64,000 nucleotides of DNA from Dictyostelium discoideum. Its lineage: Eukaryota. The position numbers were made by a program, and so were the translations under genes. The notes beneath the pieces were generated by a model. The model saw nothing but the letters and a program-made list of their open reading frames with translations, made no database searches and was not told the DNA's origin. The stretch lies in NCBI GenBank assembly GCA_000004695.1, contig CM000151.3:2400001-2464000 (forward strand), written 5' to 3'. Below are positions 1-63,843 of this stretch, one piece after another (position 1 is the first letter of the stretch; each line of letters opens with the position of its first letter).

Positions 1-264
1 TCCAACATTCAAACACACAGATCAGTTTTTTTTGGTTTTTGGATTTTTGTTGATAAAAATTTATTTTTTTTTTAATTTTTTTTTTTCTGATTGGCCCAGG
101 CTGTTCGGTATCGAAAAATTATTAAGATATTTTTAGATATGTTTTTTTTTTTAAAAAAAAACTGAGAAGAAAAATTTTTTTTTTTTTTTTTTTGATTGCA
201 ATTGCAGTTGTGAATTTTTTTTTTCTTCTTTTTTTATTTATTCATATTAAATATAAAAAAAAAA

Positions 265-3700: not shown

Positions 3701-4860
3701 ATTTTACGATTCCCTTAACACCAACAGAAACACCAACAGAAACACCAACAGAAACACCAACAGAGACACCAACACAAACACCAATACCTACATCATCACC
3801 AATACCAACGAATAAACCACAAACATGTTTAGGTGAACCAGTATGTGGTGGATCAAAACAAGGTTTTTGTTCATCAAGTGGATGTATTTGTTATCCACCT
3901 TGGATTGGTAATGATTGTAATTCACAAGTTATAATTATACCACAACCATCAACAAATACATCACAACCATCAACTGAATTACCAATTATAGAAAACAATA
4001 ATCAAACATCAAATAGTACAAATTATTTATTCAAATCATTGATTTCAATTGTATCATTAAGAGAATTAGATTTTAATTCAAATCAAGTTAATTTATATAC
4101 ATTTGATAAATGGATTTATACACCAATTAATAATATTAAAAGTCAATACTTTACAAGTATTCAAAGTGGTGATACAAAATCAACAAATACATTAACAACT
4201 AATATTACTGTAACTTTAGAATGGTTCAATCAAACGACAATCATTCAATTTGCAAATAATAATATAACAATGAATCCATCAAGTATTAAATATACAATTG
4301 AAATTACAGAATATAAATTTTTAAATCAATTAAATAGTCTTCAACTTGTAATGTCAGCATTATTCGAATCATCAAATTCCAAAGATACTTGTTCATTAAA
4401 AGAATTTGGAGATACAAGTGATGGTGATAATTCAAACTTCTTTAAAATTCAAATTGATGACCATTCACTTTATGGTAGATTCATTAAAAGAGCAATCATC
4501 GATTCAAAAGTATCTTCAATTGAAAATCAATTATTAGATTCAAAAATGAACTCAATTCAAACATCATCAGTATCACAATCATTCATTGGTATTACAATAC
4601 CAAATTATAAACAATCAATAATTATTGATCCAGACTTTTCAGTATTAGTAGATAGTAAACCAGTATCAAATAATGATAATAATTCAATTTGTACATCAAA
4701 TAAATCAAAACTAACAAGTGCTCAACTCGCTGGTATTATTATTGGTTCCGTTGCTTTTGCCACTGTAGTTATTGTATCAGTTGTTTACTTGGTCGTGAAA
4801 AACAGAAAATCAGATTTATTCCAAAGAAAAGTACAAAACAAATTACAAAAAATGAACTGA
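265..4860 (+). CDS. Tandem paralog 1 of a large type-I membrane glycoprotein family (signal peptide, NxS/T-rich ectodomain, Thr/Pro linker, EGF-like Cys module, single TM helix, short basic tail); 5 exons, ~1396 aa
   Basis: ORF-track pieces 265-669, 798-1082, 1295-1513, 1524-1907, 1954-4860 join through short AT-rich GT..AG introns. Exons are ~265-658, 781-1074, 1164-1454, 1573-1872, 1952-4860, and every junction is phase 1. Donors are gtttgt/gtaagt/gtaatt; acceptors are atag/cag/tatag. N-term MIRKRILLLILIIIVIL is a signal-like peptide. The C-term is AGIIIGSVAFATVVIVSVVYLVV followed by KNRKS. The Cys module CLGEPVCGGSKQGFCSSSGCICYPPWIGNDC is EGF-like. The junctions fit the same model in copies 2 and 3. 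Confidence 0.6.
3718..3777 (+). repeat. Coding 12-bp tandem repeat (acaccaacagaa x4, then variants) giving PTETPTETPTETPTETPTQTP in the mucin-like linker; copies 2 and 3 have only DPTPTQTP here
   Basis: The unit repeats directly in the sequence. It encodes the TETP x4 segment of ORF 1954-4860. The corresponding linker in ORFs 10638-13313 and 16065-18740 is shorter. Confidence 0.8.
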
Positions 4861-5346
4861 TCAGTTAATTTAATTCAAATATTCTAATTAAAAATCTTGG
4901 AAAATAAAAATTATTATTTTTTTTATTAATTTTTAAAAATTTCTTTATGCATTTACTTATTATTTATTTGTCTTTTCTTATGTATATGTAAAAAAAAAAA
5001 TTTCTACTGTAGTGGTTCAACAAAAAAAAAATTAAAAACAAATTAATTAGGTTTACCCACACATTTATTATTTATTTGAAATTATTAAAATTTTTCCAAT
5101 ATTTAAAAATGATGATGTTTAAATTTTTTTATTTTTATTGTTGTTGAAGTGTTAATAAATATTAAACCATTCCTAATGTCATAGTGTATAGATAGATTTA
5201 TATTCTCTCCAATCTTTGGCACAGGATCGTTTGGTAGGTTTATCAGGTTTAATAGTTTTAACAGTTCAACATGTTTAACAGACTGGAAATAAAAAATCTT
5301 CCAATTGAAATTTATTTATTTTATTTTATTTTATTTTATTTTGTTT

Positions 5347-7149: not shown

Positions 7150-7495
7150 AAATCTTAATAGGAGTTGATAATATAATTTATTTCAATTATAATGATACTC
7201 AGGCCACAGTGATCTTCAGCTACATTCTCACTTTTTATTTTAAATAGTAGTAATACAGATATGATCTAATATATATTTCAATAGTTTCAAAAAATCAAAT
7301 TAAATTTACAGTTCTTACAAATACTAGACCTGATCCACTCAGTTTCTTTTTAATTAGTACTTATCAATCTTCAATAACAAATGATATGTTTCCTTTATCA
7401 TCACAACTATTAATTGTTTCTAAACATTTCAATGAATATGGACCAATATTGACTATGGCGGTTATTATAGCGGATATTCAAGCGAATCACTTATA
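7150..7495 (+). pseudogene. Relic fragment of the membrane-glycoprotein family with an internal ~0.7 kb deletion and stops
   Basis: 7150-7440 matches copy-2 exon 5 around 10875-11190 (SVDNIIYFNYN.TQ...KFTVL.NTRP.PLSFFL...DMFPLSSQL..VSKHF.EYGPI). It then jumps directly to ggcggttattatagcggatattcaagcgaatcact (GGYYSGYSSESL), which is copy-2 ~11860. It has no start codon and does contain in-frame stops. Confidence 0.55.
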
Positions 7496-7977
7496 AAGGA
7501 AATTCCTTTATATAACAAAGGAAAATAATAATGAAAAAAAAGATATTAATATTTAAAATTAATTTAATATTTTTTATCATTTTTATTATAATATCAACAA
7601 ATAATTTTATTTTATTATTCTCTGTGTATTGGTGATTTTTTTTTTTTTTTTTTTTTTTTATAAATTAAAATTCATTGTTCCATAATTTAAATTAAATAAA
7701 GAAATTTATTGTGCATTTTAAAATTAAAATAAATAAACATATTTATTATTTTTTATTGTTTATTGTTTATTGTTTATTACTTTAAAATTAAAATTCTTTA
7801 TTTGATAATATAAATATAACTACTTTACATTTAAATAAACCTATTGATTGATTTTTGTTTAATCCTTTAAATTAAAACTCTTTATTTGGTAATTTAATTA
7901 AAAATGAATAACTGCTTTATATTTTTTTATATTATATTATTTTTTTTTTTAAATTTTTTTATTTTTTTTCTTTGTTT

Positions 7978-8532: not shown

Positions 8533-8580
<48 letters not shown>

Positions 8581-8697
8581 GTACCATTTATAATGTGTTT
8601 GTTGGGATCAAAAAAAAGAAATAAAAAATAAAAACAATGAAATTTTGTTGTGAGGTAGTCTTGAAATTCAAAAAATATTTTTTTTAATTTTTTTTTT

Positions 8698-8757
8698 AAA
8701 ATATCTTTTTATAAATATCTTTTTATAAATATCTTTATCAAATCGTAAAAAAAAAAA
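8698..8757 (+). promoter_or_regulatory. Conserved upstream element: (AAATATCTTTTT)x3 followed by CAAATCGTAAAAAAAAAA, ~55 bp upstream of the copy-2 ATG
   Basis: A nearly identical element at 14044-14100 precedes the copy-3 ATG, with x2 of the first box. A related aaaatatctattttt box at 20581-20595 precedes copy 4. aaaatatctttgg sits in the palindrome loop upstream of copy 5. Confidence 0.4.
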
Positions 8758-8809
8758 TGGGGAACGTTTTTTTTTTTTTTTTTTTTATTTTTTTTTTTAA
8801 AAAAAAAAA

Positions 8810-11800
8810 ATGATAAAGAAAATTTTATTAATAATCCTAACATTGGTGATAATAAATAGCTTTTCAACAATAAATAATTTAATAATTGGGGTTGAAGGAC
8901 AGTTTCAATTGTATGATATTACAAATCAAGAAGAAGGTGCTTATAATAGATACCCAGATTCAACAAATCAAAAAATTTGTTCATATGTTTTTTCGATTGC
9001 AATAGTTGATTACTCGAATAGTGGGGCAACTTTGAATGTTTTCACCAATGATACAGATGCAATGGTCTATCAAATCATTAGGAAAGAATATGGAGGAATT
9101 GCCACAGTTATAGTTAAAAATAAAACACCAAATACTTATACATTATTAATAAATGCAACATTGCAAAATGGTCAAAATATTTATAAGAATATCTCAATAA
9201 CTTATTCTTGTGAATGTTTGTATATAAAATTTAAAATTAAAAAAACAAAAATAAATAATTAATTAATTTCAATACCAATTTTATATAGATATCCCTCGAG
9301 AATTGATGAAGGTCAATGTTTTAACAAGTAACAATTATAAATTTACAATTAATCCTTATACAACATTAATACACTTTACAGGTTTAAAATATCAAATATC
9401 TTATCTAAATGTTTCAAGTCCTTCTTGGATAAACATAAATAATTTTTATTCAAATTTATTATATGTTAGTGTAGATTTTAATAAATATAATTTTGTACCA
9501 GAGTCTAATATATCAATACTTTTCTTGGATAGTTCAGATCAACAATATACTGTGAATATTACAATTCCTTTTTTTTATTTTTCAAGTAAGTATAATAATT
9601 AAATTTAAAAAAAAAAAAATAAGATATTAAAATTATTATTATTATAAGAAATGAATGTAGAAGAAAAGGATATTACATTCAAGATCTATCCAAACCAAAC
9701 CGATGTTACAGTACTTGGAGTTAATTGTTCACCAGTTTACTCTATTACATTAAATGAAACCATTGAATATGATCCATTATTTATTGAAGATGTTTCACGT
9801 CGTATGCCTACTCCATCATATGAAATACCAGGAAAAGGTACAACATTCATTGGTTATGTTTATACACAATATTCTATTTTCGCACAAATTAATAACTCAT
9901 TAACAACAATTTATAGTAACCCAAATTTAAATGTTTCAAGTAAGTTTTTTAAAATTAAATTCAATTACTTTTTAATATATACATATATCAAAGATTAATT
10001 TCTATTGACATTATTTAAAAAAAAATGAATAGAAAACTTTAATTTTACATTTCCAAATGTCATTGTTGAACCAGTATCATTACCTTTAATATTAAACTCA
10101 ACAATGTTTTCATTTGGGTTCACTTCAAGTTTTCAGTATGCAATTTTTCCATTTTATTTTAGATGGAATTTAGGTTTTCAATATATCTTTAGTTGGCCAT
10201 TTGGGTTTGAAAGTGGTCAAAATTCAAACTATTCTTTAAAAGTATCATTTTTAAAACCCACGTATTCGCCAAACAATTTTGGTTTATTGACCTTTAATAA
10301 TGAAAATTTTATTATTCAAATAGACAATAGTAAGTATATATACATATAATCATTAATATTCTAATATACATATATAATCATTAATATTCTAAACTACTAC
10401 TGAATAACACACACACACACCCCACACACAAACAAGTACTAACATTAAAAAATATTTTTAAAAATAGCGATAAATTCATCATTACTACCATTAGAATTAG
10501 AATCATGTAAAGTTATATACCTTTTTGAACAATTTCATTTATTAATAATTAAAATAAAACCAACATATAAAGAGATTGGTTATAATCTTTTCATTCAAAT
10601 TAATGATGATGCAAATGCAATATATAGACAAGAATCATTGGTAGATGCTGAAAATAATATATATGAAATTGTTTATGATTTTAAAGGGCGTGGATTTTCA
10701 GTTTTATCTATTGGAGATTCAACTTTTAAAAAGAGTCAAGTTTATTATGTAAATAGTTATTTTTCAATTAATCCATTTTCAGTTATAGATTATAAAGCTC
10801 CAACAATATTACCTGTTTTAATAGAAAATATTACATTTTTAAAAAATTATATTGATGTGGCAAATAAATCAGTTGATAATATAATTTATTTCAATTATAA
10901 TGGTACTCAAGCCCATAGTGATCCTTCAGCTTCATTCTCACTTTTTATTTTAAATAGTAATACCACAGAATCTAATATAGTTTTCGATAGTTTAAAGTTT
11001 GCAACTTGGAATTCAACAATTTCAAAATATCAAATTAAATTTACAGTTCTTGCAAACACTAGACCTGGTCCACTCAGTTTCTTTTTAATGTGTGGTTATC
11101 AATCTTCAATAACAAATGATATGTTTCCTTTATCATCACAACTATTTATTGTTTCTAAACATTTCGATGCGTATGGACCAATATTTAGTAATATTGAAAA
11201 AATTAATTCACCAAATGAATTTGGTTGGAAATTTACAATAGATGATCCAATTAATGGTTTTGATTATGGTGATATTATAGTGAGAGGTGAAATGGATAGT
11301 TCAACTTATAAATTCCATTTAACAACTCAAAATTTAACAAGAGGTGATAAATTTAATGGTGATTATCAAATTAATATAACTTTACCAAGTAAATGTGCAT
11401 CTCAAAATTATATTATCACACAAGTTAAATTATATGATACTCAAGGCTTTTCAGGTGAATTTTATGTAGTTGGTGAAATGGATGGTATTAAAAATGTATT
11501 TATAAATTATTTATCAGATCCAACAATAAATAAAGTATATAAAACATGTAGTGGTGAAAATGATGGTATCGATAGTTCACCACCAATTTTAACTTCATTC
11601 ATACCAATATTAAAACAAAATAGTGATGGTACTCAATACTTATCATTCAACTTTGAAGCAGTAGATATTGAAAGTGGTTTAAAAGATAAACAATATCCAG
11701 TTGTTTATATTGAAACAATAGAAGTACAAACACTTGAATGTGTATCATCTATTATTTCAATAAACGAAACAGCTGCAACCTATACATGTACTATCGATTT

Positions 11801-13313
11801 ACCAATAGGATTTGGATACAATTCAGATATTATTTTCAGTGTTTATGGATTCATTAATAATGGCGGTTATTATAGCGGATATTCAAGCGAATCACTAAAT
11901 AATTTATCTTTTATATATACAATTAATAATATAACTTTTAATAAAGTAATACAAATCACAAAATGCAGTAAATTTAATTCATTTGATAGCGAGTTATGGA
12001 TAACAGGTAGATGTTTCAATTCAACGCAACAAGTATATGTAAAATATGAAGGAGACTCAAGCTTTAATCAAATAGTACCAACTACAGTTTATTGGAGTGC
12101 AATTTTTATTAAAAATATTAAACCAACCGATAAACCATTCATTATCAAAGTTTCAGACCTACCACTCACATCAAATGAATTCACTGTCAATCCAATAGTT
12201 TATAATTTTATAGATCCAACACCAACACAAACACCAATACCTACATCATCACCAATGCCAACGAATAAACCACAAACATGTTTAGGTGAACCAGTATGTG
12301 GTGGATCAAAACAAGGTTTTTGTTCATCAAGTGGATGTATTTGTTATCCACCTTGGATTGGTAATGATTGTAATTCACAAGTTATAATTATACCACAACC
12401 ATCAACAAATACATCACAACCATCAACTGAATTACCAATTATCGATAACAATAATCAAACATCAAATAGTACAAATTATTTATTCAAATCATTGATTTCA
12501 ATTGTATCATTAAGAGAATTAGATTTTAATTCAAATCAAGTTAATTTATATACATTTGATAAATGGATTTATACACCAATTAATAATATTAAAAGTCAAT
12601 ACTTTACAAGTATTCAAAGTGGTGATACAAAATCAACAAATACATTAACAACCAATATTACTGTAACTTTAGAATGGTTCAATCAAACGACAATTATTCA
12701 ATTCGCAAATAATAATATAACAATGAATCCATCAAGTATTAAATATACAATTGAAATTACAGAATATAAATTTTTAAAACAATTAAATAGTCTTCAACTT
12801 GTAATGTCAGCATTATTCGAATCATCAACTTCCAAAGATACTTGTTCATTAAAAGTATTTGGAGATACAAGCGATGGTGATAATTCAAACTTCTTTAAAA
12901 TTCAAATTGATGATCATTCACTTTATGGTAGATTCATTAAAAGAGCAATCATCGATTCAAAAGTGTCTTCAATTGAAAATCAATTATTAGATTCAAAAAT
13001 GAACTCAATTCAAACATCATCAGTATCACAATCATTCATTGGTATTACAATACCAAACTATAAACAATCAATAATTATTGATCCAGACTTTTCAGTATTA
13101 GTAGATAGTAAACCAGTATCAAATAATGATAATAATTCAATTTGTACATCAAATAAATCAAAACTAACAAGTGCTCAACTCGCTGGTATTATTATTGGTT
13201 CTATTGCTTTTGCCACTGTAGTTATTGTATCAGTTGTTTACTTGGTTGTGAAAAACAGAAAATCAAAAAAATTCCAAAGAAAAGTACAAAAGAAATTACA
13301 AACAATTAACTGA
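8810..13313 (+). CDS. Tandem paralog 2 of the type-I membrane glycoprotein family; 5 exons, ~1378 aa
   Basis: Exons ~8810-9215, 9289-9585, 9649-9939, 10033-10329, 10468-13313, all phase-1 junctions (gtttgt/gtaagt donors, atag/taag/aatag acceptors). Exon lengths are 406, 297, 291, 297 and 2846 nt, giving an unbroken frame. ORF track: 8810-9262, 9303-9602, 9651-9998, 10104-10349, 10638-13313. Signal MIKKILLIILTLVIINS. TM AGIIIGSIAFATVVIVSVVYLVV. Confidence 0.65.
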
Positions 13314-14015
13314 TAATTACTTAATCAGTTAATTTAATTCTAATATTTAAATTATAAATCTTGGAAAAAAAATAAAAATAAAAAATAAAAAATAAAAGAT
13401 AAAAACAAATAAAAACAGGACTTTTAATTCGAAAAAAAAAGTATATATAAAAAAAATTTTAATTTTTTTTTTTTTATTATTTTTTAAATTAATCTTTAAA
13501 AAAAAAAAAAAAAGACAAAATCACCATTAATTATATAATCAATTAGCTTGAGATAGAACAAAAAAATGGATCAAGATTAGTAGAAAGAAAAAGCAATTGA
13601 TTTCATCAACAACACCAAAAAACCAATTATTTGGTAAAAAGAAAAAAAAAAACCAAAAAAAAAATAAAAAACAAGTAAAATGAACCAATCATTTAGATGA
13701 ATGTTGTTTTTTTAAAAATAACAATAATAATAAAAGATAAAATAATAAGGGGAGTTACACAGAAAATAAAAAAAATAAAAGTAAAAAAAAAAAATAAAAA
13801 AAAAGAGGAACACTTTAATGCAAAAATTTTTACAACCGCCTTATAAAATATATATAAAAAACAATCATCAATATTTTGTTTTTTTTTTTTTTTTTTTAAC
13901 AAAACGACACCAATTTGTTTGGTAATAAAAGCGAAAAGAAATTTTGTGTCTTTTTTTTTTTTTTTTTTTCTGTTTGCCCCTTAGAATTTCAAAATTTTTT
14001 TTTTGTTTTTTATTT

Positions 14016-14043
<28 letters not shown>

Positions 14044-14048
<5 letters not shown>

Positions 14049-14100
14049 TATCTTTTTTTAAATATCTTTTATTAGCTCAGCAAATCGTAAAAAAAAAAAA
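14044..14100 (+). promoter_or_regulatory. Copy-3 instance of the AAATATCTTTT...CAAATCGTAAAAAAAA upstream element
   Basis: Matches 8698-8757 upstream of copy 2. Conservation between the copy-2 and copy-3 intergenic regions indicates a recent tandem duplication that included the promoter. Confidence 0.4.
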
Positions 14101-15068: not shown

Positions 15069-18000
15069 GATATTAAAATTATTATTATTTTAAGAAATGA
15101 ATGTAGAAGAAAAGGATATTACATTTAAGATCTACCCAAACCAAACTGATGTTAAAGAATTTGGAATTAATTGTTCACCAGTTTACTCTATTACATTAAA
15201 TGAAACCATTGAATATGATCCATTATTTATTGAAGATATTACAAATAATATTCCAACTCCATCATATGAAATACCAGGAAAAGGTACAACATTCATTGGC
15301 CAAGTTCATACACAATATTCTATTTTCGCAAAAATTAATAACTCATTAACAACAATTTATAGTGATCCAAATTTAAATGTTTTTAGTAAGTTTGTTAAAA
15401 TTAAATTTAATTACTTTTTAATATATACATATATCAAAGATTAATTTCTATTGACATTATTTTAATTTTTTTTTTTAAAAAAATGAATAGATAATTTTAA
15501 TTTTACATTTCCAAATGTCATTGTTGAACCAATATCAGTACCTTTAACATTAAACTCAACAATGTTTTCATTTGGATTCAATTCAAATACCCAGTATGAA
15601 ACATTTTCATTTTATTTTAGATGGAATTTAGGTTTTCAATATATCTTTAGTTGGCCATTTGGGTTTGAAAGTGGTCAAAATTCAAACTATTCTTTAAAAG
15701 CATCATTTTTAAAACCCACATATTCGCCAAACAATTTTGGTTTATTGACCTTTAATAATCGAAATTTAAATATTCAAATAGACAATAGTAAGTATATACA
15801 CATATAAAATCATTAATATTCTAAACTACTACCGAACAACACACACACACTCAAAACAATTACTAACATTAAAAAATATTTTTAAATATAGCAATAAATT
15901 CATCATTACTACCATTAGAATTAGAATCATGTAAAGTTATATACCTTTTTGAACAATTTCATTTATTAAGAATTAAAATAAAACCAACATATAAAGAGAT
16001 TGGTTATAATCTTTTCATTCAAATTAATGATGATGATGCAAATGGAATATATAGACAAGAATCATTGGTAGATGCTGAAAATAATATATATGAAATTGTT
16101 TATGATTTTAAAGGGCGTGGTTTTCAATTTTTATCTATTGGAGATTCAACTTTTAAAAAGAGTCAAGTTTATTATTTAAATAGTTATTTTTCAATTAATC
16201 CATTTTCAGTTATAGATTATAAAGCTCCAACAATATTACCTGTTTTAATAGAAAATATTACATTTTTAAAAAATTATATTGATGTGGCAAATAAATCAGT
16301 TGATAATATAATTTATTTCAATTATAATGGTACTCAAACCCATAGTAATCCTTCAGCTTCATTCTCACTTTTTATTTTAAATAGTAATACCACAGATTCT
16401 AATATAGATTTCAATAGTTTAAAGTTTGCAACTTGGAATTCAACAATTTCAAAATATCAAATTAAATTTACAGTTCTTGCAAACACTAGACCTGGTCCAC
16501 TCAGTTTCTTTTTATGGTGTGGTTTTCGAGCAATAACAAATGATATGTTTCCTTTATCATCACAACTAATAGTTGTTTCTAAACATTTCGATGAATATGG
16601 ACCAATATTTAGTAATATTGAAAAGGTTAATTCAACAAATGAATTTGGTTGGAAATTTACAATAGATGATCCAATTAATGGTTTTGATTATGGTGATATT
16701 ATAGTGAGAGGTGAAATGGATAGTTCAACTTATAAATTCCATTTAACAACTCAAAATTTAACAAGAGGTGATAAATTTAATGGTGATTATCAAATTAATA
16801 TAACTTTACCAAGTAAATGCGCATCTCAAAATTATATTATCACACAAGTTAAATTATATGATACTCAAGGTTATTCAGGTGAATTTTCAGTAGTTAATGG
16901 AATAGATGGTATTAAAAATGTATTTATAAATTATTTATCAGATCCAACAATAAATAAAGTATATAAAACATGTAGTGGTGAAAATGATGGTATCGATAGT
17001 TCACCACCAATTTTAACTTCATTCATACCAATATTAAGACAAAATAGTGATGGTACTCAATATTTATTATTCAACTTTGAAGCAGTAGATATTGAAAGTG
17101 GTTTAAAAGATAAACAATATCCAATTGTTTACATTCAAACAATAGAAGCACAAACACTTGAATGTGTATCATCTATTATTTCAATAAACGAAACAGCTGC
17201 AACCTATACATGTACCATCAATTTACCAATAGGATTTGGATACAATTCAGATATTATTTTCAGTGTTTATGGATTCATTAATAATGGCGGTTATTATAGC
17301 GGATATTCAAGCGAATCACTAAATAATTTATCTTTTATATATACAATTAATAATATAGCTTTTAATAAAGTAATACAAATCACAAAATGCAGTAAATTTA
17401 ATTCATTTGATAGCGAGTTATGGATAACAGGTAGATGTTTCAATTCAACGCAACAAGTATATGTAAAATATGAAGGAGACTCAAGCTTTAATCAAATAAT
17501 AGTACCAACTACAGTTTATTGGAGTGCAATGTTTATTAAAAATATTAAACCAACTGATAAACCATTCATTATCAAAGTTTCAGACCTACCACTCACATCA
17601 AATGAATTCACTGTCAATCCAATAGTTTATAATTTTATAGATCCAACACCAACACAAACACCAATACCTACATCATCACCAATACCAACGAATAAACCAC
17701 AAACATGTTTAGGTGAACCAGTATGTGGTGGATCAAAACAAGGTTTTTGTTCGCCAAGTGGATGTATTTGTTATCCACCTTGGATTGGTAATGATTGTAA
17801 TTCACAAGTTATAATTATACCACAACCATCAACAAATACATCACAGCCATCAACTGAATTACCAATTATCGATAACAATAATCAAACATCAAATAGTACA
17901 AATTATTTATTCAAATCATTGATTTCAATTGTATCATTAAGAGAATTAGATTTTAATTCGAATCAAGTTAATTTATATACATTTGATAAATGGATTTATA

Positions 18001-18740
18001 CACCAATTAATAATATTAAAAGTCAATACTTTACAAGTATCCAAAGTGGTGATACAAAATCAACAAATCCATTAATAACTAATATTACTGTAACTTTAGA
18101 ATGGTTCAATCAAACAAAAATCATTCAATTCGCAAATAATAATATAACAATGAATCCATCAAGTATTAAATATACAATTGAAATTACAGAATATAAATTT
18201 TTAAATCAATTAAATAGTCTTCAACTTGTAATGTCAGCATTATTCGAATCATCAACTTCCAAAGATACTTGTTCATTAAAAGAATTTGGAGATACAAGCG
18301 ATGGTGATAATTCAAACTTCTTTAAAATTCAAATTGATGACCATTCACTTTATGGTAGATTCATTAAAAGAGCAATCATCGATTCAAAAGTATCTTCAAT
18401 TGAAAATCAATTATTAGATTCAAAAATGAACTCAGTTCAAACATCATCAGTATCACAATCATTCATTGGTATTACAATACCAAACTATAAACAATCAATA
18501 ATTATTGATCCAGACTTTTCAGTATTAGTAGATAGTAAACCAGTATCAAATAATGATAATAATTCAATTTGTACATCAAATAAATCAAAACTAACAAGTG
18601 CTCAACTCGCTGGTATTATTATTGGTTCCGTTGCTTTTGCCACTGTAGTTATTGTATCAGTTGTTTACTTGGTTGTGAAAAACAAAAAATCGGTTTTGTT
18701 CCAAAGAAAAGTACAAAACAAATTACAAAAAATGAACTGA
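14215..18740 (+). CDS. Tandem paralog 3 of the type-I membrane glycoprotein family; 5 exons, ~1379 aa; near-identical to paralog 2
   Basis: Exons ~14215-14620, 14724-15023, 15095-15385, 15491-15787, 15892-18740, all phase 1. The real ATG is at 14215 (MIKKILLIILTLAIINS); ORF 14125 begins upstream in poly-K/F. ORF track: 14738-15040, 15097-15444, 15562-15807, 16065-18740. Confidence 0.65.
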
Positions 18741-18827
18741 TCGGCTTAATAAATAATTGATTTCGTCCCAACTTTTTAATAAAAAAAAAAAATTAGTTAA
18801 TAATCCTAAAATTCTCTTTTTATAATA

Positions 18828-19999: not shown

Positions 20000-20796
20000 T
20001 GTAGGTTTTTAATCTTTTTAAATTGGTTTTTTTTTTTTTTTTTTAATGTATTTATTTATTTTTTTTTTATTTTTTTATATTAAAACCAAAAAAACCACCT
20101 CTGTTTGGTTATCGAACCAAATCCAAAATAAAAATAAAAATAAAAAATGAAAAAAAAATAAAAATAGTGATAATGAAAAAAAAAAAAATAAAAAATATCA
20201 TGATTTTTGGAACGATAATTTTTTTTTTTCTTTTTTTTTTTCTTTTCACCATTTTTTTAACTTCAAATAATAAATTTAATTGAGGAATTTTATGAAATTT
20301 TTTTTTTTAATTCTAAATTTAGCTTCCTCGTTTTTTTTACTTCAAAATGATCAAAATAAAGTTTTTTTTTTTTTTTTTTTTTATTTAAATTAAACAAAAA
20401 AATAAGGGACCCTCCCTTTGGGTAGGAAATAAAAAAGAGGCCAGCTCCGCATTAAATTACTTTTGACGATGATGTTTTTATCTTACAAAAAAAATAAAAA
20501 AAAAAAATCAATTTTTTTTTGAGTTTTTTTAAAAAATTATAATTCATGACATTTGCTTTTCATTTCCATTTATTTTTTTAAAATATCTATTTTTCCGACC
20601 AAAGATTTTTTTTTTCCGACCGATGATTATTTGCACTCAAAAAAAAAAAAAAAAAAAAAAAAATTGGACCCAGGGTTGTTAATATTTGAATATTGTTAAA
20701 TGTTGGATAGAAAAATATTTTTAGTATTTTTTTTTTTTTTCATTTTTTTTTTTTTTTTTTTTTAATATTAAAAATCATTTTGTATAATTAATTAAA

Positions 20797-23296
20797 ATGA
20801 ATAAAAATTTTGTTTTGTATTTATTTTATTTTATTTTTTTAAATTATTGTAATAGTCAATCATTGAACATAACAGATATTTCAGAAGCAAATTCGTATAT
20901 AGTATATCCTGATTCATCAAATTCACAAACTTGTTCTTTTAATTTTAAATTTTTTATCCAAACTGTTAATATAATAAATTATTCTGGAAGTTCATTTTCA
21001 TTTTTATTATCTAAATCTTTTGTTTTGGATACATCATCATTTATAACTAAAGATGGTCATGCATATGCATCTTTTAATGGTTTAAATTTGCCATTAGGAA
21101 ATGATAGTCTAATATTAACATCAACTTATGAAAATTCAGATGGTATTAAAATTCAACAAAATTATTCAATATCTTATAAATGTGAATGTTTGTATTTGCC
21201 CCATTAAATTAATTAATTTAATATTTTAAAAAATTATTTAAATTGCTAATTTTTTTTTTTAAAAGTAATTGAATTTAATTCTTTGGGTTATAAGGTTTTA
21301 TTAACAAATAATTTTAAAAAATCTAAATCAGGAATGAATGGAATTATTCAATTTACAGGATTAAAAAATAAACTAAAATCATTAAGTTCGAGTGGGGGAA
21401 TTTTCAATGTCAAACCAACATTTCCAAATAGTTTTTCATTTTCTGATTATCAATTTCAAAATTTAACAAAAGAAAATATAATTTCACTTTTATTTAATAA
21501 TGGTAATAATATTACAGTAAAATTTCCATCATCATTTAGTTCATGTAGGTATTTTTTTTTTATTTTTTTTTGAACTTGCACTTTTCATTTTTTTTTTTTA
21601 TTTTTTTATTTTTTTTTATTTAAAAATTTCAAAAAATAATTAATCCTCGTTTAATTTTATTATTTTTTAGATTATAATGTTGATGAAAGCAATTCAAAAG
21701 TTGTAATTTATCCAAGTGAAAGCACAAATATAATTGAATATGGATATGACAATTCTCCACTTTATTCAGTTACAATAAATAAAACCAGTGTTGATTATGA
21801 ACCTTATATTCAAGTTAATAATGGGTTTAGCAACTATTCTCAAATAACACCAATATATCAAAATGACAAAACTGTAACATATTTAGGTCAACTTATTAAT
21901 TCAGCACCTTCAAAATTATCAATTTATTCAGAGTTTAATAATTCTTTAATAAAAATCTATGAAACACCAATTTTAAATATTACAAGTAAGTATTTTAAAA
22001 TATATCTTTATAAATGAATTTTAATAGTAATGATAATAATTTTTATTATTATAATTTTATTTAGAATTTAGTAAAGAACCTTTTGTTCCAAATCCATTTA
22101 TTGTTACATACTTTAATAGTGATGGTATTTTTTTATTAAATTCATCAATGTTTACAATTACCACATCAAATCAATTTAATTTCTTAACAACAACCTATTC
22201 ATTTGGTTTATTCACAAAAGATTTTCAATGGCCATTTGGTTTTGGAAGTGGTAATAATTTTAATTATAATGTATCCGCTTCATTTTTGAGATACAAGGCT
22301 CTCATTAGTTCACCAAAAGTTTTTACTGTTGATAAAACAAATCTAATCAACATTAATTCAAATATAAGTATGTATATAATTTATTATAAATAAATTTAAA
22401 ATAATAATTAATAATAATAATATTTAAATTTTTTAATATTAATATATATTTTTATTATATTATTATTATTATTATCATTAAAACATAAACTGTTTTTTTT
22501 TTAAAAAAAAAAAAAAAATTATAGTTGCACCAACTGTAAATGCACCAATTCTTTTAAAATTTGAATGGGTTCATTTATTTTCAGGAAATTATTTATTAAA
22601 ATTTAGGGTAAAAGATAATGGATATGAAGCATTTGTTGGTATTGGTGATGTCAATACAATTGCATTAAGATATGAATCAATGATAGATAGTGAAAGTATA
22701 GGTGATGAAATTGTATTTGCAGCAGTTATAGATACATACAGATATCCAATTGACAAATTTATTGTATTCGATAGATTGGGACAAACAGAAACATATTCAA
22801 TCGGTCAATATTATTCAGTTAATCCACTTTTAAAAATTGATTCATTTTATGAAAATAATAATAAAAATAATAATAATAATAATAACTTATTACTTATTAA
22901 TAATATTACATTTTTTAATAATTTTATCGATATAATAAATAAATCAGTTGATAATGTAGTTTATTTTACATATAATGGAGGTAGAATGGATAATGATGAA
23001 AAACCAATTGGATTTATGTTAATGGACGTAGTTACATTAGTAAAGAATAGTAAATACCATTTCAACAGTTCAACACTATACTTTTCAACTTGGAATTCAA
23101 CAATATCAATGTATCAAATTAAATTTAAAATACCTGCAAATACCCAACCTGGTCATATTCCATATAGATTCTTTATCAACTCTTATTCAACACCTTTAGA
23201 TAGTGAATTCTTACCATCATCTGCACAACTATATGTAACATTATCAAGTAAGTATCTATAATATAGGTATAAATACAATTTATCAATAGTTTTCAA

Positions 23297-23378
<82 letters not shown>

Positions 23379-25625
23379 GAATCTACAGATTTCGATGGAT
23401 ATGGACCAATATTTAGTAATATTGAAAAGGTTAATTCAACAAATGAATTTGGTTGGAAATTTACAATAGATGATCCAATTAATGGTTTTGATTATGCTGA
23501 TATTATAGTTAGAGGTGAAATGGATAGTTCAACTTATAAATTCCATTTAACAACTCAAAATTTAACAAGAGGTGATAAATTTAATGGTGATTATCAAATT
23601 AATATAACTTTACCAAGTAAATGTGCATCTCAAAATTATATTATCACACAAGTTAAATTATATGATACTCAAGGTATTGGTTGCTACTTTTCAGTATCTG
23701 AATCATTTGTAGGTGGTGGTGTTAATAACCCATTTATAAATTATTTATTAGACTCAACAATAAATAAATTATATAAAAAGTGTAGTGGTGAAAATGATGG
23801 TATCGATAGTTCACCACCAATTTTAACATTATTTACACCACAAGTAGCTATTCCTGCAGATGGACATATGGAAGTATATTTCTCATTTGAAGCAACTGAT
23901 TACGAAAGTGGATTAAAAGATCTTCAATATCCAATGGTTTACGTTGAAGCAATTGAATTTCAAATATTTGAATGTGAAACAATTATTAAATCAAAGAATA
24001 TCACCTCTGCAACCTATCAATGTTACGTTTACTTACCAAGAGGTGTATTGTACACTTCAGAAATTACATTCAGTGTTTATGGATTAATTAATAATGGTGG
24101 TTGTTATGGTGGTTATTCAAGCGACTCACTAAGAATTCTATTCCCGTATAAGTTTTCAATGAAAGCAGTATCATCAGGACTTGCTAAAAGGTTAGATATC
24201 TATAGAGTTTCTCAAATTACAACAAGTGGTGGCGAATTATGGATAATAGGTGCTGGTTTCTTTTCTTCAAATCTTGTAGTATTAATTAAATATTATGGTG
24301 AATCAACATTTACACAAACATCAATACCAACTATAAGTTATCCAAATGCAATGTTAATCAATGATGTCAAACCAACTGATAAACCATTCATTATCAAAGT
24401 ACAAGAAGCTTTCTTTTCAAATGAATTCACTGTTTATCCATTAGTATTTGATATTCGTTTTGTACCACCAATTCCAACAGAATTACCAACAGAATCCCCA
24501 ACACCAAATCCATCATCATCATCTTCTTCAATAGACTCGTCATCGTCAACACCTACATCATCACCAATACCAACGAATAAACCTCAAACATGTTTAGGTG
24601 AACCATTATGTGGTGGATCAAAACAAGGATATTGTTCATCAAGTGGATGTGTTTGTTATCCACCTTGGATTGGTAATGATTGTAATTCACAAGTTATAAT
24701 TATACCACAACCATCAACAAATACATCACAACCATCAACTGAATTACCAATTATCGATAACAATAATCAAACATCAAATAGTACAAATTATTTATTCAAA
24801 TCATTGATTTCAATTGTATCATTAAGAGAATTAGATTTTAATTCAAATTAAGTTAATTTATATACATTTGATAAATGGATTTATACACCAATTAATAATA
24901 TTAAAAGTCAATACTTTACAAGTATTCAAAGTGGTGATACAAAATCAACAAATACATTAACAACCAATATTACTGTAACTTTAGAATGGTTCAATCAAAC
25001 AACAATCATTCAATTTGCAAATAATAATATAACAATGAATCCATCAAGTATTAAATATACAATTGAAATTACAGAATATAAATTTTTAAATCAATTAAAT
25101 AGTCTTCAACTTGTAATGTCAGCATTATTCGAATCATCAACTTCCAAAGATACTTGTTCATTAAAAGTATTTGGAGATACAAGCGATGGTGATAATTCAA
25201 ACTTCTTTAAAATTCAAATTGATGATCATTCACTTTATGGTAGATTCATTAAAAGAGCAATCATCGATTCAAAAGTATCTTCAATTGAAAATCAATTATT
25301 AGATTCAAAAATGAACTCAATTCAAACATCATCAATATCACAATCATTCATTGGTATTACAATACCAAATTATAAACAATCAATAATTATTGATCCAGAC
25401 TTTTCAGTATTAGTAGATAGTAAACCAGTATCAAATAATGATAATAATTCAATTTGTACATCAAATAAATCAAAACTAACAAGTTCTCAACTCGCTGGTA
25501 TTATTATTGGTTCCGTTGCTTTTGCTGCTGTCGTTGTTGTTGCAGCTTCTTATTTTATTATAAAAAAGTGGAAAGACGATAAATTTGTAAAAACATTTAA
25601 TAGAAAATTAAAAAAACTATCATAA
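20797..25625 (+). pseudogene. Divergent paralog 4 of the membrane glycoprotein family; 6 exons, including an extra intron absent from copies 1-3; the open frame is interrupted by a single in-frame TAA at 24849-24851 upstream of the TM helix
   Basis: Exons ~20797-21187, 21266-21544, 21671-21985, 22065-22367, 22525-23247, 23389-25625. The junctions are phase 1 and the lengths fit a continuous frame. ORF track: 20797-21207, 21283-21573, 22148-22393, 22680-23261, 23520-24851, 25035-25625, with the last two in the same frame. aattcaaatTaagtt aligns to aattcaaatCaagtt (Q, NSNQVNLYTF) in copies 1-3. The tail is AGIIIGSVAFAAVVVVAASYFIIKKWKDDKF... Confidence 0.55.
23248..23388 (+). other. Paralog-specific intron (gtaagt...(att)n...tctacag) inside what is continuous exon 5 in copies 1-3
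   Basis: Copy 4 reads ...QLYVTLS | NFDGYGPIFSNIEKVNSTNEF. Copies 1-3 read ...QLIIESKHFDEYGPIFSNIEKVNSTNEF without a break. The donor is ttatcaa|gtaagt and the acceptor is tctacag|atttcgat. The intron contains an (ATT)~29 microsatellite at 23293-23378. Confidence 0.6.
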
Positions 25626-26554
25626 TTAACAAATAAAAAATACTGTGTATTAATTTTTTAAAAGTTTATTCCTTTTTAAAAGGAGTAGTTTAAATAAAGA
25701 TTTTTAAATAATTAATTTTTTCTATGGAATTATTTAAATAAAATTTTTAAAAAAAATATATTTAACTAGTGGATTTTATTTATTTTTAAATTGTTTTAAT
25801 TGTCTTAGAGTTTTTTTGAATTACTTTTTTTAAAAAATAAGAAAGAAACTGATACAATAACAACACAACAGATAATTCATTTGAAAAGAATTTTGAATTT
25901 TCTTGTACTTTGATAATGAATGGTTTTTCAGTTGGTTTGACATCATTAATTAACATTGTATTTGGATAAATTATAGTAGGTATTGATGTTTGTGTAAAGG
26001 TTGATTCACCATGATATTTAATTAAGACTACAAGATTATTTCATTTAATTTTTTTGTATCTACTCTATGCAAAATAGTATTTAAAAAAAAGAATTGATGT
26101 TAAGTTGGTGGTAAATTAAAATTTCTTTGTATGCTGGAAATTGAGATTCTCTAACTTTTTAATTTGAAATTATAATTGGTATAATAATAAAACTTGGGAA
26201 ACTTAATTTTAATTATCTATATGTTGAATGAATACTTTAACATCAGCCTCACTTAAATACTTCCCAGAGGTGGTAAATTTGGTGTTGATTGCAATTAATT
26301 ATTAAAAAAAATTTTTTTTTTTTTTTTTTAAAAAATATTTACTAACATAATCCACTTTTCAATTTCATAAACCAATTTCATTTTTTTAAATCTGACAACA
26401 CTGTTTAAAACTTTTTGATTGCCAAACTCTTTTTCTATATGGTTACCAAAAATCAAAGTGAGTGGTCCATGATTTTTTTAACATTATGGGTACAGTTTAT
26501 TTTGAGCATTAAAATAACAGCAGTAATGTACTCGAATTTGAAACCAATTAATTT

Positions 26555-29440: not shown

Positions 29441-29906
29441 AATGAAACCTAAAAGAATGAATGCTCATTTTCTTCTAGAGGTATTATATTTTATTATTTT
29501 AGATTGAATATAAATATTTGTACTAATTTTTTTTTTTTTTTTTTTTTTTTTTTTCTCTAATTAAAAACAAAAAACTGTTCATTGGATTTTATCGCCAAAA
29601 CCTAAACTTCTGGTCTGAAAAAAAAAAAAATCAATACCAAAAGGTGAAAAAAGAAAAAATAATAAAAAAAAAAAAAATAATAAAAAAAAAAAACAAATAA
29701 AAAAAAAAAATAAAAAAAAAAAGTGTTTGATTTGAAAAATTTAAAAAAAAATATTAAAAAGTGTTTGGTTTGGCCAATCCGCACAATAAAAAAAAAAAAG
29801 GGGGGAAATTTAAATAGAGTTTTTTTAATTTTCTATTAAACATTTTAACAAATTTATCATCTTTCCACTTTCTTATAAAAAAAGTAACTACAATTTATTA
29901 AGCTGA

Positions 29907-34759
<4,853 letters not shown>

Positions 34760-34828
34760 TTTCTATTTGACTGATAATAACAATAATAAAAACAATATGC
34801 ATTATTTTTTTTTTTTTTTTCGTCATGT

Positions 34829-34948
34829 CAATTTTAATGTTTTCAATAATAATCACTCTTTTGATTTTTTTTTAATTTTTTTTTTATTTTAAAATATCTT
34901 TGGCATTAAAAAAAATCAAAAGAGTGATTATTATTGAAAAAATTAAAA
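34829..34948. promoter_or_regulatory. ~43-bp inverted repeat (1 mismatch; perfect 29-bp core caataataatcactcttttgatttttttt) with a ~36-bp loop containing aaaatatctttgg, 70-190 bp upstream of the copy-5 start codon
   Basis: Arms 34845-34873 and 34909-34937 are exact reverse complements. The extended arms gtcaattttaatgttttcaataat / attattgaaaaaattaaaattgaaatg differ at one position. Confidence 0.6.
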
Positions 34949-35525
34949 TTGAAATGAATTAAATTAATTGTCAGATATTTATTTTTTTTTTTTTTTGTGC
35001 AGTCAACTAAAAATAAAAAAAAGATATTTTTAAAAAATCATGATTGTTGAAATTGGTGGTTTTATTTGGATTTTCATTTTTTTTTTTAAAAATAAAATAT
35101 AATACTATTATTATTTTATTGTAAAACATTATTTAAATTCTATTATATGTTTAGTGATGTGGAGGAAAATGAAATGAAAATGAAATTTTAAAAAAAAAAA
35201 AAAAATAATTAATATTTTCATTTTTGAAAATAATTTTATTACTATGGCATTTTGAAAAGAAGATGATATCATTTATAAATTAAAAACTAGAAATTAAAAA
35301 ACTTAAAAAAATAAAATTAAAAAAGGTTAATGAAATATATATTTTTCATTATTGTTTAAAAAATCAATTTAATTAATATAAAAAAATTAAAAAAAATATA
35401 TTTAATACTGGTATATTTGTTTTTTAGATATTTATTTTGAAATTAGATTTTTTTTTTTTTTTTTTTTGATTTTTTTTTAATTTTTTTTTTTTTTTATTAT
35501 TTTTTAATGTTTCAATAAAGTGAAA

Positions 35526-49036: not shown

Positions 49037-50836
49037 TTATTTTCTTTTTTCAAGAATTACTTTGAATGGGTTTGGTTTTAATGTTAAACCATAAGTTTGA
49101 GTTTCATCAACTGGTTTACCATCAATTGATTTAAATTTGAAATTTAATATCATATTTGATAATGCAATATAAATTTCATCTTGGGCAAAATTACTTCCAC
49201 TAAATTATTAAAAATAAAAAATTAATATCTGAAAATATATACATGATAATACTCAAATCAATTAAGTAATTGAGTGAGAATATAATTTAGATACATTACA
49301 CGCAATTTCTTGGACCAATACTAAATGGCATGAAAGCTGGATTTGAATCAGAATTTAAAAATCTAGTTGGATCAAATTGATTTGGATTTTCAAAATATTC
49401 TTCATTTCTAGATAATGCATGATAATTAATTAAAATTTGAGCATTCTTTGGAATAAATTGACCATTATTTAAAATGATATCAGAGGTAGTTGATCTTGGT
49501 AAACCAAATGGTGATATTGGTTTATATCTTAATGTTTCTTTAAATAATGATACAACAAATGGTGTTGATTGTCTATCTGATAACAAAACTTTATTTCTCT
49601 GAGTTAAACCACCACCACCACCGCCACCATTTGATGATAATGCTGATTTAATTTCATTATAAGCTTTCTCTTGATATTCTGGATAATTAATTAACATCAT
49701 TACAATTAATTCTAAAGAAGTTGCAGAAGTATCAACACCAGCTAAAAAGAAATCACTAACTGTTGCAGAGATTGATAAAATTTGATCATCAGTTTCTGTA
49801 CCATATTCTTTAATCAATAGATCCATTAAGTCTCTTTGAACATCTGGTTTGTAAGTTTCTAAATGTTTATAAATTTTCATTTTACCAAAATTAATAACTT
49901 GATAATAATGACTTGTAAACCATTCTAAATATAAGAAATACAATGGTCTTGTTATCTCTAAAACATCAAATAAACTACCAGTACCGAAATCTTTGAATAC
50001 CTTTTGCATTGGTTTCATTAATTGTGCTAATTGACCATTATGCACATCTTCATCTTTGGAAATATCTTCATTGAAAATATATTTAAACATTGCTGACATT
50101 GTAAATTTGGTTAAATAATAACGTGGATCAAATGTTTCACCACTGGATTCAATGGTTCTCATCGATTCAATTAATACATCAACTTGATCATCCAATAATT
50201 GATAAATATGTTTTAAATTGGTCTTTCTCATTGCCTTACCAACAATCTCTTTATTATTTTTCCAATTATCACCCATTGATGCTACTGTACCATGATAAAA
50301 TGTTCCATGTTTTACTGACTATTTATTTTATTTTATTTATTTAATTAATTAATCTTATTTATTATTATTAAAAAAAAAAGAAATAAAAACTATTATAAAA
50401 AAAAAAAAAATTTTACATACTGGTATTTTTGGTCTGTCAATGAAATTGTCAAACTTGTCAACAAATAGCTCTCTTGCAATTATTGGATCACAAACAATAA
50501 CTGTATATAAGTCTGCTAAATAAATTCTAAAGATTTTACCATATTTTTCACTCATCTTTGTTAAATCAAAATGAGGTAAATTGGTTAACTGATAAATGTT
50601 GCCCAATATAGGAATTGGAAAAGGACCTGGTAATTGATTTTCATTTAATCTTTTATATTTTGAATACTTTTATTTTTATTTTTTTTTTTTTATTTTTTTT
50701 TTTTTTTTTTTTTGGTAGACTAACATGTTTTTTAAATTTTTTAGAAAATAAAAAAAAGAAAAAATAATAAAAAAATACTTACAGCATTATGTAAAATATA
50801 AATTAAAAATAGATACACAATGATGCCAAATATCAT
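49037..50836 (-). CDS. Cytochrome P450 (copy A of a tandem triplet), ~493 aa, 4 exons
   Basis: - strand exons 50836-50783 ([18 protein letters not shown]|gtaagt), 50666-50421 (...DRPKIP|gtatgt), 50318-49300 ([20 protein letters not shown]...FSIGPRNC(V)|gtaatg) and 49199-49037 ([10 protein letters not shown]...EKRK*). Phases 0/0/2 are consistent. ExxR ETLRYKP; PFG; heme loop [13 protein letters not shown] track: 50355-50606, 49296-50276. Confidence 0.75.
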
Positions 50837-51185
50837 TTTTTTAAAAATTGATTTTATGAAATTAAAAAAAAAAAAAAAAAAAAAAATTTAATTATAAAAT
50901 CAAAAAAAAAAACCATAAAATATGCCAAAAAAAAATAAAAAAATAAAATTAAAAAAAATAAAAATTAATTATAGTAATTTATAAATATCTTCAAAAGTAA
51001 AGATTCTTTTCAAATTGAAAAAAAAAAAAAAAACCAACCCTCTTTTTTAAAAAAAAATAAAAAAAAATCTTTATTAAATTTGAAAGTAAAAAATGAAATT
51101 CTTGAATAATAAAGTTAAATATCAAACCAATAAAAATAAGGTTATCGCGTTAACTAGTATTTTTATTAATTTTATATTTTTAATT

Positions 51186-51218
<33 letters not shown>

Positions 51219-51320
51219 TTTAATTATTTAAAAAATATATTAAAAAATTTGTTATTTCTTTTTTGAGTCACAATGAATCCTTTTTTTTGTTTTTGAAGTT
51301 AAATAGTTTTTTTTTAAATT

Positions 51321-51366
<46 letters not shown>

Positions 51367-51401
51367 TATTATTATTATAATTATTTAAATAAATATAAAA
51401 A

Positions 51402-52046
51402 TTAGATAATTCTTTTTTCAAGAGTTACATTGAATCTATTTTTAGTTTTTAGTGTGAGGCCATATTCCTCAGTTTCATCAATCTTTTTACCGTCAATTGA
51501 TTTTAATTTAAAATTTAAAAGAATATTTGAAATACAAATGTATAGCTCATCTTGAGCAAAACTTTGACCCCTATAAAAAAATAATTTAATTGATTAATTA
51601 ATTGTTTATTTTTTAATTTTTTTTAAAAATTAATTATACATACACACAACTTCTAATACCAATACTAAATGGTAAAAATGCAACATTTGATTCAACTTTT
51701 AAAAATCTTGATGGATCAAATTGTTCTGGATTTTCATAATATTCTTCATTCATTCCAAGTGCTTGATAATTAATTAAAATTTGTGCATTCTTTGGAATGA
51801 AATGACCACCAATCATACAATCCTTTGATGAAGATCTTGGTAAACCAAATGGTGACATTGGTTTATATCTTAATGTTTCTTTTATTACAGCAACTAAATA
51901 AGGTGTTGATTGTCTATCTGATAAATTAACTTTACTTCTACCATTTACAACTGTCTTTATTTCATCAAATGCTTTTTCTTGAATTTCTGGATAATTTGTT
52001 AACATCAATACCATTGATTCTAAAGCAGTTGAACTTGTATCAACAC

Positions 52047-52082
<36 letters not shown>

Positions 52083-53414: not shown

Positions 53415-54155
53415 ATTTTTTAAATTACCACTTGTGTGCAAGTAATTTTTTTTTTTGTTTTTTTGTTTTTTTTTTTTTTTTCTTTTCAACAATTATATTT
53501 TTATTTTTTATATTTTTATTTATATTTTTAATTTTTGGTTTAAATATTTTTTTGTTTTTGTTTTTGTTTTTTTTTTTTTTTTTTTTTTTGTTCAACAACA
53601 GTTTAAAAAAAAAAAAAAAAAATAAAAAAAAAAAAATTAAAAAAAAAAAATTATTTTAATAATGTTTGAATTAAAACTGACAACATAGATGATTAACATA
53701 GTAAATCTATGAATCATAAAAATAAATTATTGTTTTCTCAACTGAGTAAGATGTCTCCTCACAATCTAATGTACAAAAAAAAAAAATAAAAAAAAATAAA
53801 AAAAATAAAAAAAATAAAAAAAAAATAAAAAATAAAAAAATAATACTAACACCATTATTAAAAAAAAAAAATTAAAAAAAAATTTTAAGATCCCCACACA
53901 TTTTCTATTCAATATGCACAAAAAATACACACACTTTTTTTCTTTTCTTTTTTTTTCTTTTTTTTTTTTTTTTTTTTTTTCATTGTTATTCTCAATTTTT
54001 GAGATTTTATAAAAAATAAAAAATAAAAAAAAAAATAAAAAAAATAATGAAAATAATAATAAAAATAATAAAAAATTATAATTTTTTTTGTATTGGGTTA
54101 AATTTGGACACAATAATATTCAATAAAATTTAATCCAATATTTACACGCTCACAG

Positions 54156-54208
<53 letters not shown>

Positions 54209-54252
54209 TTATTTATTATAATTAATTATTTTTTATTAAATTTTACAATGAA

Positions 54253-61717: not shown

Positions 61718-61767
<50 letters not shown>

Positions 61768-63784: not shown

Positions 63785-63843
<59 letters not shown>

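Follow-up and report, generated by a model that had tools for sequence, protein, structure and literature searches.

Repeats of AAAATATCT(T) are predicted to be the sites of one sequence-specific transcription factor, and a proximal cluster of them is probably characteristic of the ComC-like (DUF7035/DUF7034/ComC_SSD) genes of group-4 Dictyostelium. The repeats are over-represented upstream of these genes, specific to the family, constrained in position and present in both orientations, and they are retained across species in promoters that can no longer be aligned. Enrichment, positional constraint and retention in orthologues and distant paralogues are the predictions of a shared transcription-factor site, and their observation supports that reading.

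The window, a stretch of 64,000 nucleotides of Dictyostelium discoideum DNA with a G+C content of 22% across its whole length, contains an array of five gene copies. Their products are ComC-like membrane proteins of ~1,380 amino acids with a signal peptide, DUF7035, DUF7034, DUF7949, a ComC supersandwich domain (ComC_SSD) and a C-terminal membrane anchor, and their top database matches are entries named 'EGF-like domain-containing protein [Dictyostelium discoideum AX4]'. AX4 proteins of the array genes include XP_644341, XP_644336 and XP_644339, and the matches contain at least 10 AX4 records of the family. ComC itself is restricted to group 4 and essential for development (PMC4931340). The corresponding locus of a second D. 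discoideum assembly (GCA_054883475.1), L001, is 99.85% identical to positions 4201-28749 of the window. Start codons of the five copies were taken from the sequence and verified by N-terminal homology:

265, plus strand: ATG of copy 1
8810, plus strand: ATG of copy 2
14215, plus strand: ATG of copy 3
20797, plus strand: ATG of copy 4
34759, minus strand: ATG of copy 5

Family genes were compared across 11 loci that represent six or seven species or lineages of Dictyostelium; ten of these loci, L002-L011, were fetched for the comparison. Among them are four orthologous arrays: two belong to 'D. cf. discoideum' lineages, one to D. citrinum and one to a divergent assembly that bears the name D. 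discoideum (locus tags ACTFIW), with 82% protein identity to copy 2. The others comprise a D. firmibasis paralogue, a second D. citrinum array, a D. dimigraforme array, two genes of D. purpureum and, from yet another D. discoideum assembly (locus tags ACTFIR), a singleton on a different contig. Some of the gene starts are automatic gene models, and two that were demonstrably wrong were corrected. For the D. purpureum gene of L008 the corrected start is 8365, the public model (931 aa) being N-terminally truncated; for the third family gene of L005 it is 20889, behind a full copy-2-type promoter. The public model of the latter begins ~300 bp too early (region 20582-20889), and its exon 1 apparently has an internal deletion, so this gene may be a pseudogene.

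Several features of the window concern the history of its genes. The last ~1.1 kb of the five copies (3766-4869, 12219-13314, 17646-18750, 24511-25540 and 29897-31024) are 96-98% identical, whereas their 5' two-thirds are just 75-86% identical, which suggests gene conversion of the C-terminal part (ComC_SSD and membrane anchor) beside diverging N-terminal ectodomains. Two intergenic fragments of family coding sequence, one at 7163-7450 (84% identity to 10871-11185) and one at 25867-26037 (an inverted, 89% copy of 24270-24434), are probably pseudogene remnants. Other tandem paralogues, unrelated to the ComC-like array, lie at 49078-55498 (three copies, 73-79% identity) and at 61009-63980 (two copies, 80% identity). 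Among the AX4 matches, two of the three proteins looked up have two GenBank accessions per sequence (for example, EAL70416 and EAL71086), and the third has a second AX4 entry within the same 90%-identity cluster (EAL70414 and EAL71159). Chromosome 2 of AX4 contains a duplicated segment, and the paired accessions are as expected if the array locus lies inside this duplication.

Each of the five copies is preceded by the 8-mer core AAATATCT, which forms the conserved part of the repeat. The sites and the sequences beside them are as follows:

8692-8736, plus strand: 14-bp tandem array of copy 2 (Tandem Repeats Finder: period 14, 3.2 copies, 93% matches)
8699-8706, 8713-8720 and 8727-8734, plus strand: three AAATATCT cores of copy 2, 111, 97 and 83 bp 5' of ATG 8810
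8739-8750, plus strand: CAAATCGTAAAA of copy 2, then an A-run to 8757, 53 bp 5' of the ATG
8767-8798, plus strand: 32-nt T-run of copy 2, between the boxes and the A-run/ATG
14046-14053 and 14060-14067, plus strand: two AAATATCT cores of copy 3, 14 bp apart, 169 and 155 bp 5' of ATG 14215
14081-14100, plus strand: CAAATCGTAAAA (14081-14092) and A-run of copy 3, ending 115 bp 5' of the ATG
20580-20588, plus strand: single AAAATATCT of copy 4, 216 bp 5' of ATG 20797
20591-20600 and 20612-20621, plus strand: two TTTTCCGACC of copy 4, found exactly elsewhere only at the same site in the L001 strain
125-141, minus strand: inverted pair AGATATTTTTAGATATG of copy 1, which is AAATATCT on the minus strand with 10-bp spacing
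34892-34899, plus strand: AAATATCT of copy 5, inverted relative to the gene, 139 bp 5' of ATG 34759
34973-34980 and 35022-35029, minus strand (gene orientation): two more cores of copy 5, 221 and 270 bp 5' of the ATG

The copy-2 array is identical in the second D. discoideum strain, where the length of the downstream T-run is the sole difference. Given the usual build of Dictyostelium promoters, the T-run at 8767-8798 would adjoin the transcription start. A common layout unites the copy-2-type promoters of four lineages: GAAATTTCAAAAA, a T-run, one to three AAAATATCT and (C)TCAGCAAATCGTAAAA are followed by an A-run and a short block that contains GC, then by another T-run and A-run, and finally by the ATG. 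The window contains AAATATCTTT nine times, compared to 2.4 expected, a count reached in one of 100 shuffles. The count of CAAATCGTAAAA is not above chance (two compared to 1.9 expected, with up to one mismatch); its significance lies in its place next to the core array in both copy-2/3 promoters and in their orthologues. It is exact at copies 2 and 3 of the window and at L005 g2 and g3, and inexact at L002 g2 (one mismatch) and L003 g3 (two mismatches). A search across the loci did not find it at copies 1, 4 and 5 or at the distant paralogues. Judged by this distribution, the CAAATCGTAAAA box was added to the copy-2/3 promoter in that lineage alone; it could act as a second site or as a TATA-like element (TAAAAAAA), or be plainly inherited sequence.

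The inverted pair of copy 1 lies ~139 bp 5' of ATG 265 and is kept in all four orthologues. In D. citrinum the pair reads AGATATTTTGGATAAG and is among the few surviving blocks of an otherwise diverged promoter. Copy-1-type promoters of the D. discoideum complex conserve other blocks as well, namely GATTGG (an inverted CCAAT box; window 89-94) and GATTGCAATTGCAGT (window 194-208), which holds the palindrome GCAATTGC.

At copy 5, the core at 34892 lies within the 35-nt loop of an inverted repeat, whose 88-nt arms (34785-34872 and 34908-34995) are 77% complementary. A palindrome is also found in the promoter of the second gene of L003, from a D. cf. discoideum lineage (9747-9872; 62-nt arms, 94% complementary, 2-nt loop), and carries AAAATATCA in each arm. 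Divergent from copy 5 is the gene of a 675-aa protein without a Pfam match (ATG 35526). An inverted core at 35426-35433 lies 100 bp 5' of this ATG, and the orthologous site in L002 is at 22493, 125 bp 5' of the gene at 22618. The motif may thus serve both genes of this bidirectional intergenic region.

All the sequences that the original prediction had placed upstream of copies 2, 3, 4 and 5 are present there. The threefold first box ~55 bp 5' of copy 2 corresponds to the three cores of an element that ends 53 bp before the ATG, and the twofold box 115 bp 5' of copy 3 to two cores of an element that ends at exactly that distance. AAAATATCT followed by TTTTCCGACC twice occupies 20580-20621 at copy 4, and the loop of the copy-5 palindrome holds AAATATCT at 34892-34899. 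The inverted pair of copy 1 and the two further cores of copy 5 go beyond that description. The proposal of a two-part box, AAATATCTTTTT / CAAATCGTAAAAAAAA, shared by the array holds for the AAATATCT half, which is found in all five copies; the second half is confined to the copy-2/3 lineage, where it could simply have been inherited. TTTTCCGACC, which had been noted beside a related box, is private to copy 4, with no exact copy at any locus beyond copy 4 and its L001 counterpart. Co-regulation of the array, as originally proposed, would be too narrow a description, because family loci elsewhere on the chromosomes are marked as well.

The frequency of the core was compared between family promoters and other DNA. 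Ten of the 27 AAATATCT sites in the window fall in the 1.46 kb 5' of the five family ATGs, corresponding to a density of 6.8 per kb, compared to 0.27 per kb elsewhere. With both strands counted, 18 of 19 genes have the core within 300 bp 5' of family ATGs (28 sites in 5.66 kb, or 4.9 per kb), against a background of 0.48 per kb in AT-rich DNA and 0.17 per kb in other DNA. AAATATCT is 10- to 47-fold commoner upstream of family genes than in other AT-rich intergenic DNA or ahead of neighbouring genes, the outcome expected by the original prediction, which had made its case depend on a comparison with other intergenic DNA. Across all 11 loci, the core occurs at 21 of 26 family genes (36 sites) and at 5 of 61 neighbouring non-family genes (6 sites; Fisher p = 4e-11). 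Dinucleotide shuffles of the family promoters contain 0.98 +/- 0.96 sites, with a maximum of 5, compared to the 36 observed.

Longer and shorter forms of the word behave in the same way. The 10-mer AAAATATCTT is counted 20 times in 7.8 kb of family and once in 18.1 kb of non-family promoters, and AAAATATC is present at 24 of 26 family and 6 of 61 non-family genes. An unbiased presence test of all 8-mers and 7-mers placed AAAATATC, AAATATCT and AATATCTT on top. After orthologues were collapsed into 15 paralogue lineages, AAATATCT is found in 10 (p = 3e-8) and AAAATATC in 13 (p = 7e-12); neither gene nor lineage counts are fully independent, owing to the common ancestry of family promoters. The background is local, comprising the 61 neighbouring genes and ~200 kb, and the motif could mark a wider gene set than the ComC-like family. 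One apparent non-family match (L002, 19273-) is the N-terminal half of a split family gene.

The sites are also constrained in position. The median distance of the ATG-nearest site is 134 bp, and in 21 of 24 genes this site lies at 80-190 bp. Promoters contain one to five sites in either orientation, and tandem sites are spaced by 10-16 bp, mostly 10-14 bp. Two of the 26 family promoters, L007 g2 and L009 g3, lack even AAAATATC within 300 bp, and in three genes, two from D. purpureum and one from D. dimigraforme, the word is followed by A or C rather than T. Among the more distant family members, the D. firmibasis paralogue has three forward AAATATCT sites, two of the three genes in the second D. 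citrinum array have one site at -110, the D. discoideum singleton on the other contig has two forward sites and three inverted tandem sites, and the two D. purpureum genes carry AAAATATC at -180 and -133. At 7680-7860 of the D. purpureum locus L008, a tandem triple, AAAATATCAT AAAATATCAT AAAATATCTGG, lies ahead of a leftover 5' fragment of a family gene. This arrangement is ~660 bp 5' of the real ATG at 8365, and the gene's own promoter retains one AAAATATCA. Triple and remnant together look like a partial duplication of promoter and first exon.

The 52 sites selected for the core AAATATC have the consensus (A)AAAATATCT(T), with A at -1 in 43 of the 52 and T at +7 in 39. Its 9-mer, AAAATATCT, is identical to the plant evening element. 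Plants bind this element with single-repeat SHAQKYF MYB factors, those of the CCA1/LHY/RVE group. SHAQKYF MYBs are present in Dictyostelium (PMC6278869, PMC2845816), and because the consensus equals the evening element and this class exists in the organism, a SHAQKYF MYB is the first-choice candidate, although a tentative one. A more specific version of this analogy, in which AAAATATCT would be the amoebozoan counterpart of the evening element and a CCA1/RVE-like SHAQKYF MYB would drive the group-4 ComC-like family, appears unlikely. The analogy is weakened by the reported consensus of MybE, the only characterised Dictyostelium SHAQKY MYB, which is AAC(a/t)GTT (PMC2845816). This MybE site is missing from the box, and the word AACTGTT is sporadic in copy-1-type promoters and not conserved. 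A literature search found, among the papers it covered, none that links AAATATCT or the evening element to Dictyostelium, and the sole motif reported in a Dictyostelium ATAC-seq motif paper is MADS-box. In the comparison with known Dictyostelium elements advised by the original prediction, neither the MybE consensus nor canonical GATA words nor GATC fit.

A non-canonical GATA zinc finger is a second choice that we only infer. No role is known for many of the Myb/SANT and GATA factors of Dictyostelia, and the GATA family is very large and rapidly amplifying (PMC6873476). The reverse complement of the core, AGATAT, contains GATA, and the sites could be bound by a Gta zinc finger, such as GtaC or another, which would be a variant of the shared-site explanation with another class of protein. 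GtaC controls early developmental and cell-cell signalling genes, and its ChIP-seq peaks are enriched for a GATA-like motif (PMC4506546); in addition, the second site of the D. citrinum copy-1-type promoter is GGATAAG. The composition of the promoters, however, does not follow this pattern. A canonical GATA/GtaC site was rejected because neither WGATAR words (family compared to non-family, GATAA 2.06 and 1.60, GATAG 0.52 and 0.50 per kb) nor GATC, the word preferred in vitro by the GtaC DNA-binding domain (PMC4506546), are enriched (GATC, 1.03 and 0.83 per kb). The enriched word is GATAT, at 7.7 compared to 2.2 per kb, and the conserved 9-10 bp (AAAATATCTT) exceed a typical 6-bp GATA site. A GATA-factor site is an unlikely description of the motif.

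It was also considered whether the repeats are part of the core promoter. The classical Dictyostelium promoter, as reportedly described by Kimmel and Firtel in 1983, has a TATAAA(T/A)A box, an oligo(dT) run and the start. The repeats would then be a TATA-box variant that positions RNA polymerase II before the oligo(dT) run, a general feature of Dictyostelium genes. Two of the three copy-2 repeats read TATAAATA, several orthologous repeats read TATAAA(A/T)A, and the long T-run and A-rich leader downstream are the classical Dictyostelium arrangement. Yet the conserved part is AAATATCT, including a C, and C and T fall outside the TATA consensus, while the TAT prefix is unconserved and missing in copies 3, 4 and 1, L006 and L007. 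Against a TATA-box role speak the independence of orientation, a copy number that varies from one to five per promoter, and family specificity; the word is within 300 bp of just 5 of the 61 non-family neighbours and so is no generic element. Distances of up to 180-280 bp from the ATG would also be long for a TATA box in a short-leader genome. For copy 2, whose repeats read TATAAATA, a core-promoter role is conceivable; as an explanation of the motif in general, it is decidedly unlikely.

The remaining alternative is a box without function, inherited through the duplications that gave rise to copies 2 and 3 and the rest of the family, and not yet decayed. Copies 2 and 3 are indeed 94-95% identical from 11 bp 5' of the ATG to the stop codon, their orthologues have a clearly homologous promoter layout, CAAATCGTAAAA is confined to the copy-2/3 lineage, and slippage erodes complex sequence more slowly than the surrounding homopolymers. 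However, the alignment of the two copies ends on both sides of the coding region, and the upstream similarity is restricted to the box. The box region aligns at z = 12.7 relative to dinucleotide shuffles, the 260 bp 5' of it show no similarity by the same measure (z = 1.5), and matches between box and ATG are limited to T/A runs. With unaligned flanks and a box that is identical between strains, the box is a conservation island, which is unexpected from a simple recent duplication; neither the sequence ahead of the box nor that behind the stop codons aligns, and such a tandem duplication was rejected as the full explanation.

The wider comparison points in the same direction. The D. citrinum copy-2-type promoter still aligns overall with that of copy 2 (z = 4.7), but the copy-2 promoter has no significant overall similarity (z = 0.6-2.7) to its counterparts at copies 1 and 5, in D. 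firmibasis, in the second D. citrinum array and in D. purpureum, which indicates that the word was kept in sequence diverged past alignment. The 8-10-mer recurs in promoters without detectable overall homology, those of copies 1, 4 and 5, of D. firmibasis and D. purpureum and of other chromosomal loci, with its distance constrained and its rate 10-47 times that of the background. D. citrinum has the most diverged copy-1- and copy-2-type promoters, and the core is one of the few blocks left in them. Enrichment is also seen, on a small scale, at unlinked family members. A duplication leftover is thus very unlikely to account for the motif.

Other elements near the box were examined and set aside. 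A second shared motif, (G)GTGGGAA / GGCTGGGAA, had been seen by eye and is outside the top-ranked 6- and 7-mers; its likeness to a CSL/Su(H) site was rejected because CSL/LAG1 is among the families undetected in Dictyostelia (PMC6873476). An upstream ORF (ATGGGGAACG...) was discarded since its ATG is not conserved and is GTG in L005 g2, as was an intron donor in the 5' UTR (TCG/GTAAAA) since the acceptor is not conserved, both judged by eye. Dispersed ~100-bp repeats detected by self-BLAST are unrelated to the box and represent long (ATT)n microsatellites, both intronic and intergenic, which occur at 8537-8581, 32178-32287 and about six other places.

A shared transcription-factor site, the preferred reading, suggests a simple model. 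One to five sites, typically 80-190 bp 5' of the ATG and often in tandem pairs or triplets 10-14 bp apart, would recruit the factor just 5' of a core promoter composed of an A-run, a short GC-containing block, a long T-run, an A-rich leader and the ATG. Recruitment would provide a common transcriptional input for the family members, and local slippage or duplication would alter the number of sites among paralogues and species, such as the three in copy 2 and the two in copy 3. Protein binding, activation of transcription and the position of the start are what we infer from this arrangement.

More generally, very few cis-regulatory words have been defined in the extremely A/T-rich Dictyostelium genome. 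Of its ~250-290 transcription factors, most, including dozens of MYB and GATA proteins, are without a known target sequence (PMC6873476, PMC12714135). A short, family-specific and position-constrained motif that is found across species offers a concrete bait for DNA-affinity capture or one-hybrid experiments, and a handle on the expression of the ComC-like surface proteins, a large family that duplicates rapidly. If its binder is a SHAQKYF MYB, the motif would link plant and amoebozoan MYB specificities; otherwise, it would be an ordinary though clean promoter element. Should the evening-element counterpart prove true, the MYB-DNA recognition code would predate the split of plants and amoebozoans, and the ComC-like family would be one cell-cell communication regulon.

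The motif can be compared with four known systems. The classical Dictyostelium core promoter is similarly A/T-rich, some of the repeats read TATAAATA, and a long T-run and an A-rich leader follow in both, but the motif described here is multicopy, occurs in both orientations and belongs to one gene family. The GtaC regulon shares a GATA core, here on the opposite strand, and promoters of developmentally relevant surface-protein genes; it differs in that the word here is GATAT(TTT) rather than WGATAR or GATC, in a stretch of 9-10 bp. MybE sites in the ecmA and mrrA promoters are likewise short Dictyostelium promoter elements tied to a SHAQKY MYB, and an ecmA fragment containing the site works when multimerised (PMC2845816), although the site is unrelated in sequence to AAAATATCT. 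Finally, the plant evening element resembles the motif at the sequence level only, and the host here is an amoebozoan without a known circadian clock; as in the ComC-like genes, however, the evening elements of proximal promoters may point either way and are often present several times.
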